A stretch of DNA of 64,000 nt, taken from Escherichia coli. Its GTDB lineage: Bacteria; Pseudomonadota; Gammaproteobacteria; Enterobacterales; Enterobacteriaceae. A program made the translations under genes and the position numbers. Shown here piece by piece: positions 61,821-63,050 of this stretch; the stretch's first letter is position 1, and every line of letters starts with the position of its first letter. The stretch lies in the NCBI RefSeq assembly GCF_011045215.1, contig NZ_CP049201.1. One strand, given 5' to 3'. The notes beneath the pieces are model-generated. The model was not told where the DNA came from. It saw nothing but the letters and a program-made list of their open reading frames with translations, and ran no database searches.

Positions 61821-63050
61821 TTATGGTGCAGGATAGGGGTTATTTTTAACTAATTGTTCTTTAATGGGATTTGTTGTCATGGAATGACAGGGTGTCAGAA
61901 GATGCAGGTGCAGGATTTGGTGGAAAGGATGTGCAGTGGCATGTAACAGAGACATGCCCCTGCGCCTGAGAAGTGCCACAATATGGCCGAGCAATACAAA
62001 CCACGAATGCAGACGACGCTGGCGGGGTATCTGACGAGCTGTATTGTGCAGTTTGCTCCTGAGTTGAATGACACCCACTGTTTCCTGTTGTCTTTCCAGA
62101 CGAATTTTTTCTTCAAGCTGAAGGATTTTCTCCAGAATCGTTTCCCGGTTTGCAGCCTGTTCTTCAGGCTCGCATGATGGCACTGGCACTGGCACTGGCA
62201 CTGGCACTGGCACTGGCACTGGCACTGGCACAGTCTGCTGTTGCTCTTTTTTCAGTAAAGCCAGGTGCTCTGGTGTAAAATCAATCTGTGTTTGCAGAGA
62301 AGACCAGCCATACTTTTTTCCAAGCTGAGACGCTTTAAAGGCAATGCCCTGGTACTGAAATGAAAAGCCGTTCATTTTTCCCGTTGAGGCGATATTAGGT
62401 TTACAGTTCACGCCTTCCTTTTCCAGCATAGTGATAAAAGTCAGCAAATCAGGGCGGCCGGTTAACGCATTATCAATCAGGCTCTGCAGAGTGGACCTGG
62501 GGCAGGGAGTTGTCGTTCTTTCAGCCATCATCAGCTCGTTGCGGGAAGGCTTTCTTTTCTCCTGACTATGACTACTGATTGCAGATGTGGTTTGAGTGAG
62601 TTTGTGGACTTTCTCCAGCTCGCTGATAATCCGGGTACTGATAAGATTTTCATTTTTCCCAAGGTACAGCTTCCCACCGACCATGTTAATTCTGTTAGCT
62701 ATTATATGGATATGCTGCCCGTCCGAATCATCGTGCATGATATAGCAGCGAAGATGGGTTTCAGTGAATCCCATCCGGGTCATATAATCGTCAGCGAATG
62801 CCGCCCATTGTCTGACTGACAGTGTTTCTCCCTTTGGCAGGCGAAGCGAATTATGCCAGACAGGTTTGGCGACACCGGGGCGCAGTAGTCTTGTGCCTTC
62901 AAATTCACTGATAAGTTCAGCAGCAGTGCTTCCCGTCATGTTGCCACCGATAATATAAGGCGTGATTTTGTGGTGAGATCCTGACTTAAGGCTATAGAGA
63001 ACAACACCTGCGAACTGTTTACCCCGCTTTATTTTCTGCATACCTTTCAT
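61821..63050 (-). CDS. mobilisation relaxase (MobA-like)
   Basis: 409-aa ORF with relaxase histidine motif HDDSDGQHIHIIANRI; start overlaps mobC stop (ATGA); contains (PV)n tract. Confidence 0.8.
   Translation of the reverse strand: MKGMQKIKRGKQFAGVVLYSLKSGSHHKITPYIIGGNMTGSTAAELISEFEGTRLLRPGVAKPVWHNSLRLPKGETLSVRQWAAFADDYMTRMGFTETHLRCYIMHDDSDGQHIHIIANRINMVGGKLYLGKNENLISTRIISELEKVHKLTQTTSAISSHSQEKRKPSRNELMMAERTTTPCPRSTLQSLIDNALTGRPDLLTFITMLEKEGVNCKPNIASTGKMNGFSFQYQGIAFKASQLGKKYGWSSLQTQIDFTPEHLALLKKEQQQTVPVPVPVPVPVPVPVPVPSCEPEEQAANRETILEKILQLEEKIRLERQQETVGVIQLRSKLHNTARQIPRQRRLHSWFVLLGHIVALLRRRGMSLLHATAHPFHQILHLHLLTPCHSMTTNPIKEQLVKNNPYPAP
62178..62230. repeat. hexanucleotide microsatellite (GGCACT) x 8 plus a partial unit, inside the relaxase gene
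   Basis: Read directly; encodes PVPVPVPVPVPVPVPVPV on the minus strand. Confidence 0.95.

Follow-up and report, generated by a model that had tools for sequence, protein, structure and literature searches.

A variable in-frame hexanucleotide repeat encodes a Val-Pro tract in the relaxase of a putative mobilisable island of Escherichia coli

A relaxase gene and the repeat inside it

The present analysis concerns a stretch of 64,000 nucleotides of Escherichia coli DNA (NCBI RefSeq assembly GCF_011045215.1, contig NZ_CP049201.1), hereafter the window, and within it a relaxase gene whose reading frame contains a perfect array of 6-bp units (Table 1). Pfam assigned residues 32-151 of the protein to PF03432 (Relaxase, MobA/VirD2 nuclease domain) with E = 1.4e-22 and 80.8 bits, against a cut-off of 24.6, and the histidine triad is present as H106-D107-D108...H113-I-H115. 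In 101 aligned homologues H115 never varies, and H106, H113 and the N-terminal catalytic tyrosine, Y19, each reach at least 90% conservation; in the alignment of the close family all four residues are invariant. The best Foldseek matches in the PDB were the MobA relaxase domain of R1162 (2ns6, probability 0.99) and MobM (4lvi, 0.97), with weak E-values since the whole 409-residue model served as query. Specialised NCBIfam models scored below threshold (TraI_MobP_relax, 56 bits with a cut-off of 250; Bacteroides MobB, 61 with 400; MbpB, 51 with 400), and a sequence search of the PDB returned chance-level matches only, for instance to a PVPVPV stretch of a polyketide synthase.

On the plus strand, direct reading found TGGCAC nine times in perfect head-to-tail order at 62178-62231, and Tandem Repeats Finder reported period 6, 9.0 copies, 100% matches and no indels for the same 54 bp. 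This is the sole perfect short-unit array found in the 64-kb window. Runs of three units, allowing at most one mismatch each, occur seven times, all within the array, compared with an expectation of 0.00 from 100 dinucleotide-preserving shuffles of the window, and a chance origin of the array is excluded. In the 409-residue protein the tract reads T-(VP)9-S, with a threonine before and a serine after the dipeptides. The initial annotation had thus rightly placed a hexanucleotide repeat in the relaxase gene, but had it end at 62230 with "8-9" copies instead of exactly nine ending at 62231; its unit, GGCACT, is a rotation of TGGCAC, and the encoded dipeptide is Val-Pro, not Pro-Val.

Several lines of evidence locate the tract within the protein. 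A HMMER search of 1.84 billion cluster representatives yielded 3,417 relatives. For nearly all of the 150 top-ranking ones (50%-cluster representatives), homology stops at query residues ~252-262, beyond which these proteins, 187-1062 aa long, have unrelated C-termini. AlphaFold2 gave a block-mean predicted local distance difference test score (pLDDT) mostly above 90 over residues 1-260, with 72-82 at 151-170, and 88 at 261-270. No secondary structure was predicted for residues 274-294, where pLDDT falls below 50 from 279 onwards, and the C-terminus was modelled as a 45-residue helix (295-339), a second helix with a hydrophobic motif (343-363) and a low-confidence tail. In this model, the alternating X-Pro dipeptides lie between the folded residues 1-273 and the helices starting at 295. 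The tract is hence shown to lie exactly at the junction between a conserved relaxase module of ~270 residues and a C-terminal helical part. That it links an N-terminal relaxase module to a C-terminal part had already been proposed from the letters alone, and the Pfam domain, the end of distant homology and the AlphaFold2 model all agree with this.

The same holds for the proposal that the repeat lies in frame inside a genuine relaxase gene. The gene is annotated as intact in all 17 related E. coli loci that we fetched, and the ratio of non-synonymous to synonymous substitution rates (dN/dS) is 0.155-0.164 for the N-terminal parts versus 0.32 after the tract. Judged by this ratio, the post-tract part is under purifying selection; this, together with its conservation in the close family, argues that the sequence following the tract is genuinely translated. 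A W..IP[YF]I-type motif in the C-terminal part was considered as a feature of the wider family and dismissed as such: it is common to only 3 of the 150 best representatives and marks the close subfamily.

Table 1. Features of the relaxase locus and its surroundings in the window.
Feature	Window coordinates	Strand	Basis
Relaxase, 409 aa, MobA/VirD2 HUH type, closest to MOBP class	61821..63050	-	Pfam PF03432, motif, structure match
N-terminal module, residues 1-273: relaxase domain and second small domain	62232..63050	-	Homology, AlphaFold2
Hexanucleotide repeat (GTGCCA)9, encoding (Val-Pro)9, relaxase residues 274-291	62178..62231	-	Sequence reading, Tandem Repeats Finder
C-terminal part, residues 292-409, and stop codon	61821..62177	-	AlphaFold2, length, dN/dS
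Accessory gene, 134 aa, 4-nt overlap with relaxase start	63047..63451	-	Open reading frame coordinates
9-nt perfect inverted repeat, GAGCAGATT N11 AATCTGCTC, intergenic, upstream of accessory gene	63545..63573	.	
IS21-type insertion sequence	istA 56924-58591; istB 56152-57150		
IS4/Tn5-like transposase	58682-60097		
Degenerate 23-bp tandem repeats, after the insertion sequences	60106-60182		

Copy number among alleles and relatives

We read the tract in 18 sequences, namely the window and the 17 E. coli loci, which had been picked for differing match lengths. The tract ranges from 2 to 14 units, always whole and always in frame: alleles of the window's type carry 9 (the window itself), 8, 7, 11, 6, 14 and 4 GTGCCA units, and those of other allele families 8, 8, 6, 7, 10, 11, 4, 8 and 2. 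One allele (locus L007) consists of (ATGCCA)10, that is (Met-Pro)10, and the related allele of E24377A (L011) reads VPMPVPMP, so in L007 a mutated unit has been amplified. Outside the tract, all 18 alleles have a constant length (789 nt before and 357 nt after it). Over these 1146 nucleotides no substitution separates the alleles of L001, L005 and L006, which carry 8, 14 and 4 units, respectively, nor those of L010, L013, L015 and L017 with 8, 7, 10 and 11 units. Since copy numbers differ where the flanks are identical, change in the tract is much faster than the accumulation of point substitutions. Replication slippage is the probable source, judging from the sequences compared; it would add or remove whole 6-bp units, and the reading frame would never be lost.

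Larger samples gave a similar picture. Of the 130 matching E. coli genomes, a spread sample of 60 was compared; wherever the match was full or near-full, its length departed from that of the window solely by multiples of 6, ranging from -30 to +48. The lengths of 120 close database proteins step by 2 residues, and interrupted variants such as VPVPVPVPVPEPVPVPVPEPVP are among them; in one database protein (P0003) a VPVPVPEP block is duplicated. Where an allele has just two uninterrupted units, its length does not vary (main prefix of this kind, 57 of 57 database representatives), and 13 complete genomes with an allele of the two-unit type share an identical match length, an invariance that fits a slippage rate rising with array length. 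The initial annotation had anticipated polymorphism in copy number and named invariance across homologues as its refutation; sequence reading, gene alignment and match lengths all revealed variation in whole units, and such invariance was not seen.

Could these differences be sequencing or assembly artefacts, with the true tract being invariant? Repeats can mis-assemble, and one metagenomic representative (P0121) stops inside its Ala-Pro tract. Yet a 54-bp array is shorter than any modern read, every difference is an exact multiple of 6, and the same pattern recurs in complete genomes from many laboratories. Moreover, match lengths are equal between the two JX21CE33 assemblies, between MRE162 substrains, and within the clonal or duplicate sets 19AR1724/23AR1217/24AR0180 and CX21/CX07, which makes an artefactual origin extremely unlikely.

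The tract shares with phase-variable contingency loci that a simple-sequence repeat within a gene mutates faster than the surrounding DNA. In contrast to those loci, its unit is a multiple of three, and the outcome is a change in length without switching of expression. No out-of-frame allele was found, the C-terminal sequence being in frame in 18 of 18 genes and 120 of 120 database proteins. Given such a unit and the lack of any out-of-frame allele, on/off switching is not possible.

Several relaxase alleles (L007, L009, L014, P0109 and P0113) look mosaic, being identical to the window over the first ~100-160 residues and of another allele type beyond. This suggests recombination between island variants, which would complicate tree-based estimates of the mutation rate of the repeat.

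The repeat recurs beyond E. coli. In Salmonella, a homologue with only 69% overall identity has (GTGCCA)11 at this site, flanked by other residues. In a scan of one genome per species, Kluyvera cryocrescens carries 6 GTGCCA units, Phytobacter massiliensis 12 and Citrobacter sp. Cu233 likewise 12, while Citrobacter youngae has an interrupted array of 9 units, 7 of which are GTGCCA, and Superficieibacter electus has nine units in one gene copy and two in another. The junction is likewise occupied by perfect hexamer repeats of other sequence in related relaxases across Enterobacterales, which at 50-63% identity encode (Ala-Pro)n there: GCTCCT 11 times in a gut Enterobacteriaceae genome, 12 times in Buttiauxella gaviniae and 21 times in Dryocola boscaweniae; GCACCA 10 times in Rahnella laticis; and two GTTCCT plus five GCTCCT units in Yersinia pekkanenii. 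At that junction, other relatives (47-63% identity) have a non-repetitive stretch rich in Ser, Thr, Glu and Ala. The longest X-Pro run at the junction comprises 1-11 dipeptides in a set of 120 database relatives of the Ala-Pro family, which come from Enterobacter, Klebsiella, Escherichia, Salmonella, Cronobacter, Serratia and Citrobacter.

The tract of D. boscaweniae, (GCTCCT)21 encoding (Ala-Pro)21, is the longest that we saw; it lies in a relaxase open reading frame that starts at position 3001 of its locus (L029), and a second dipeptide repeat, (Ser-His)n, is found ~30 residues downstream of it. In a Klebsiella protein (P0300), (Ala-Ser)n directly follows the Ala-Pro tract. Dipeptide repeats other than X-Pro can therefore expand in this linker, too.

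As differing DNA units encode like peptides, the peptide rather than the DNA motif appears to matter. This bears on the idea that the array acts at the DNA level, as plus-strand sigma-54 "-24" boxes, a protein-binding array or a structure former, with its coding capacity being incidental. The unit is indeed identical to the sigma-54 -24 element, TGGCAC, but sister families keep the type of peptide with the unrelated units GCTCCT and GCACCA, and we consider a DNA-level role highly improbable. A sigma-54 promoter at the tract was tried and rejected: no match to TGGCAC-N5-TTGCW with up to two mismatches overlaps 62178-62260, and matches of this type are not enriched in the window (29 found versus 39 expected). 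Instability driven by hairpins or other secondary structure was discarded as well, with neither strand folding better than shuffles (z = +0.85 and +1.54).

The X-Pro tract as a probable spacer

Our preferred interpretation, to which we assign a probability of about 0.78, is that the relaxase of this mobilisable island carries a variable-number in-frame hexamer repeat that provides a length-tolerant X-Pro spacer, with variation that is neutral or nearly so and without an on/off switch. The alternating X-Pro peptide would form an extended, non-globular spacer that tethers the relaxase module to the C-terminal part, probably in a polyproline-II-like conformation by analogy with domain II of TonB. 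There, Glu-Pro and Lys-Pro repeats form an extended polyproline-II structure, truncation of which reduces reach (PMC10666116). Both proteins have alternating X-Pro dipeptides between two functional parts. TonB, however, is an energy transducer that spans the periplasm and has charged X residues, whereas the relaxase is a cytoplasmic DNA-processing enzyme in which X is Val, Ala or Met, the polyproline-II conformation is presumed, and the repeat is perfect at the DNA level.

The initial annotation had also suggested that the length of the linker could alter mobilisation efficiency. Comparative data point towards a loose constraint on length, since intact alleles have 2-14 units and relatives have unrelated, non-repetitive linkers. 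A wide range of spacer lengths is thus probably tolerated, and most length variation would be neutral or nearly so. X-Pro repeats may have arisen, or been kept, repeatedly at this junction, as a proline-rich spacer would be what the junction needs.

Among typed plasmid relatives, the nearest is MobA of the IncQ2 plasmid pGNB2, a relaxase-primase. This protein, typed as MOBP (PLSDB/MOB-suite), is 42% identical to the window relaxase over residues 6-253; in both systems a mobC-type accessory gene lies immediately upstream of the relaxase gene, and in both a non-globular linker opens at the same point after the relaxase module. In pGNB2 MobA (813 aa), a long, low-complexity and non-repetitive linker rich in Gly, Arg, Asp and Ala leads to a primase domain, whereas the window relaxase is chromosomally encoded and has 409 residues, its Val-Pro repeat being perfect and its C-terminus short and helical.

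Some points weigh against a nearly neutral, passive spacer. The slippage rate is estimated from genome comparison, and both the spacer role and the polyproline-II conformation are deduced from the sequence and a low-confidence region of the model. The C-terminal part itself reached a pLDDT of only 40-74 in AlphaFold2 and matched no known family in Pfam. Closely related isolates share the same tract length, so the tract is not hypermutable on outbreak timescales. Finally, differing DNA units have repeatedly given rise to X-Pro, a hint of selection acting on the peptide that could extend to its length.

One alternative is adaptive tuning, in which the Val-Pro tract would be a semi-rigid ruler: the longer or shorter it is, the further from or nearer to the DNA-bound relaxase domain a C-terminal helix with a docking or membrane-proximal role would sit, and slippage variants would differ in mobilisation efficiency or in the helper conjugation system they can use. 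Retention of the tract at the same site down to 69% identity, the similar X-Pro chemistry built from different DNA units at the same junction, and the conserved C-terminal helix and motif beyond the spacer are all compatible with such a ruler, as is the precedent of TonB-type X-Pro domains as length-dependent reach elements (PMC10666116). On the other hand, lengths of 2-14 units occur together in genes that are intact and identically flanked, and many relatives have non-repetitive linkers of quite different length and composition. On balance, we regard adaptive tuning as unlikely. Quite unlikely, too, is its extension to a heritable, quickly adjustable ruler by which slippage re-tunes the island to the helper conjugation system of a new host; if true, it would explain why different lineages have independently acquired perfect hexamer repeats encoding X-Pro at this junction.

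Alternatively, the tract could be a specific proline-rich ligand rather than a passive spacer, for example a motif by which the relaxase docks to the coupling protein or to some other partner. Proline-rich polyproline-II segments are common binding motifs, and it is specifically X-Pro that recurs at this junction. For a specific binding motif, though, it would be unusual that X varies (Val, Ala, Met, Glu, Ile) and copy number differs sevenfold, and close family members exist that lack any repeat; a ligand function is hence very unlikely.

We return to the length-tolerant spacer. That in-frame coding repeats can make proline-rich linkers is well known, but a relaxase repeat of this kind appears undescribed in the open-access literature: searches there for proline-rich or tandem-repeat linkers in relaxases, and for relaxases together with variable-number tandem repeats, retrieved nothing relevant, and the repeat sequence itself, present in 42 papers, surfaced in the 20 of them listed in unrelated oligonucleotide and primer contexts. 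Nature provides here an allelic series of 2-21 dipeptides, with Val, Ala or Met before Pro, that could serve to probe the distance allowed between the catalytic module and the C-terminal part. Besides, the tract represents a fast-evolving marker for tracking this island family in Escherichia, Salmonella, Klebsiella, Enterobacter, Citrobacter and related genera. If it is true that length affects helper compatibility, the repeat would constitute a simple mechanism for tuning horizontal transfer.

The island and its neighbourhood

Near-identical DNA is present in 135 of 5,426 complete E. coli genomes, chromosomal every time, and was absent from 72,556 plasmid records. In the closest genome, 19AR1724, the relaxase gene lies within an island adjoining ssrA. 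The island also bears genes for an integrase and a recombinase, a pair of ParB-like genes, ankyrin-repeat genes and a type I restriction system; from ssrA to the core gene glaH, the annotation lists no conjugation machinery. Classed by this gene content and the lack of annotated conjugation genes in that interval, the island is composed like an integrative mobilisable element. What the window shows is the opposite side of this region, with csiD, an ileY-like tRNA, an AIDA/pertactin autotransporter, a SIR2-like gene, and ankyrin and DUF6387 genes. A protein match of 79.5% labelled "plasmid" (OX345050.1) was not accepted as a plasmid copy: the record is a 3.6-kb linear contig, typed non-mobilizable and with the same gene order, and looks like a fragment of the same kind of island. 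Open-access literature on an ssrA-linked mobilisable island in E. coli yielded general reviews of integrative mobilisable elements, none of those seen describing this one.

The relaxase is accompanied by a SIR2-like gene and several ankyrin-repeat genes (window 48112-51357; locus L001, 10555-24667). With these genes, plus the type I restriction system of the E. coli relative, the island looks like a carrier of defence-type cargo.

The accessory gene precedes the relaxase gene in every locus fetched. Its product has a weak NikA-like Pfam match (E = 7.9e-4, below the curated cut-off) and probably belongs to the relaxosome as a MobC/NikA-like protein. An origin of transfer (oriT) usually lies in the intergenic region upstream of this accessory gene, and the inverted repeat located there (Table 1) is only a candidate oriT element, the placement of oriT being presumptive. 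A scan for sigma-70 promoters and terminators around the relaxase gene gave counts no higher than in shuffles. Downstream of the relaxase gene, at 60577-61635 on the minus strand, three small genes are conserved throughout the related loci; their products are a zinc-ribbon/membrane protein of 91 aa and two lipoproteins of 132 and 106 aa, the shorter lipoprotein having a faint TraV-like match (E = 0.0014, far under the cut-off).

Two adjacent insertion sequences lie immediately to the left of the mobilisation genes (window 56152-60182). Related islands have other insertions nearby: in AHB18 (L005) an IS1 truncates the accessory gene, and E24377A (L011) carries an IS21-like element.

Hexanucleotide loci whose 6-bp units vary between strains are already used in MLVA (multilocus analysis of variable-number tandem repeats) of E. 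coli (among them CVN014, CVN015, CVN016 and CVN017; PMC8143711; PMC3877011), and the relaxase tract resembles them in unit length and in strain-to-strain variation by whole units. Its identity with a published MLVA locus (GECM-10) was rejected, as none of 10 primer pairs (PMC8143711) matches near the repeat. The locus being carried by 135 of 5,426 genomes, the tract would type the island and not the species. The sole MLVA primer match in the window is that of the CVN016 reverse primer at 6534, with 2 mismatches, in a tRNA gene ~56 kb from the repeat. A tRNA array occupies 6534-7670 (276-bp period, 3.8 copies), with one longer tRNA followed by four identical ones, and the CVN016 typing locus probably lies just upstream of it.

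A second proline-rich repeat at a domain junction is encoded in the same window, by the AIDA/pertactin-type autotransporter. It differs from the relaxase tract in being imperfect, in its longer unit and in residing in a surface protein. At 46407-46495, within the plus-strand open reading frame 42571-47433, an imperfect 12/24-bp tandem repeat (GATCCAAAACCA-type, 74-78% matches) specifies a stretch rich in Asp/Lys-Pro that lies, in the 1620-aa AIDA-type protein, between its pertactin domain and its beta-barrel; in Pfam, this stretch shows likeness to the trypanosome procyclic acidic repetitive protein.

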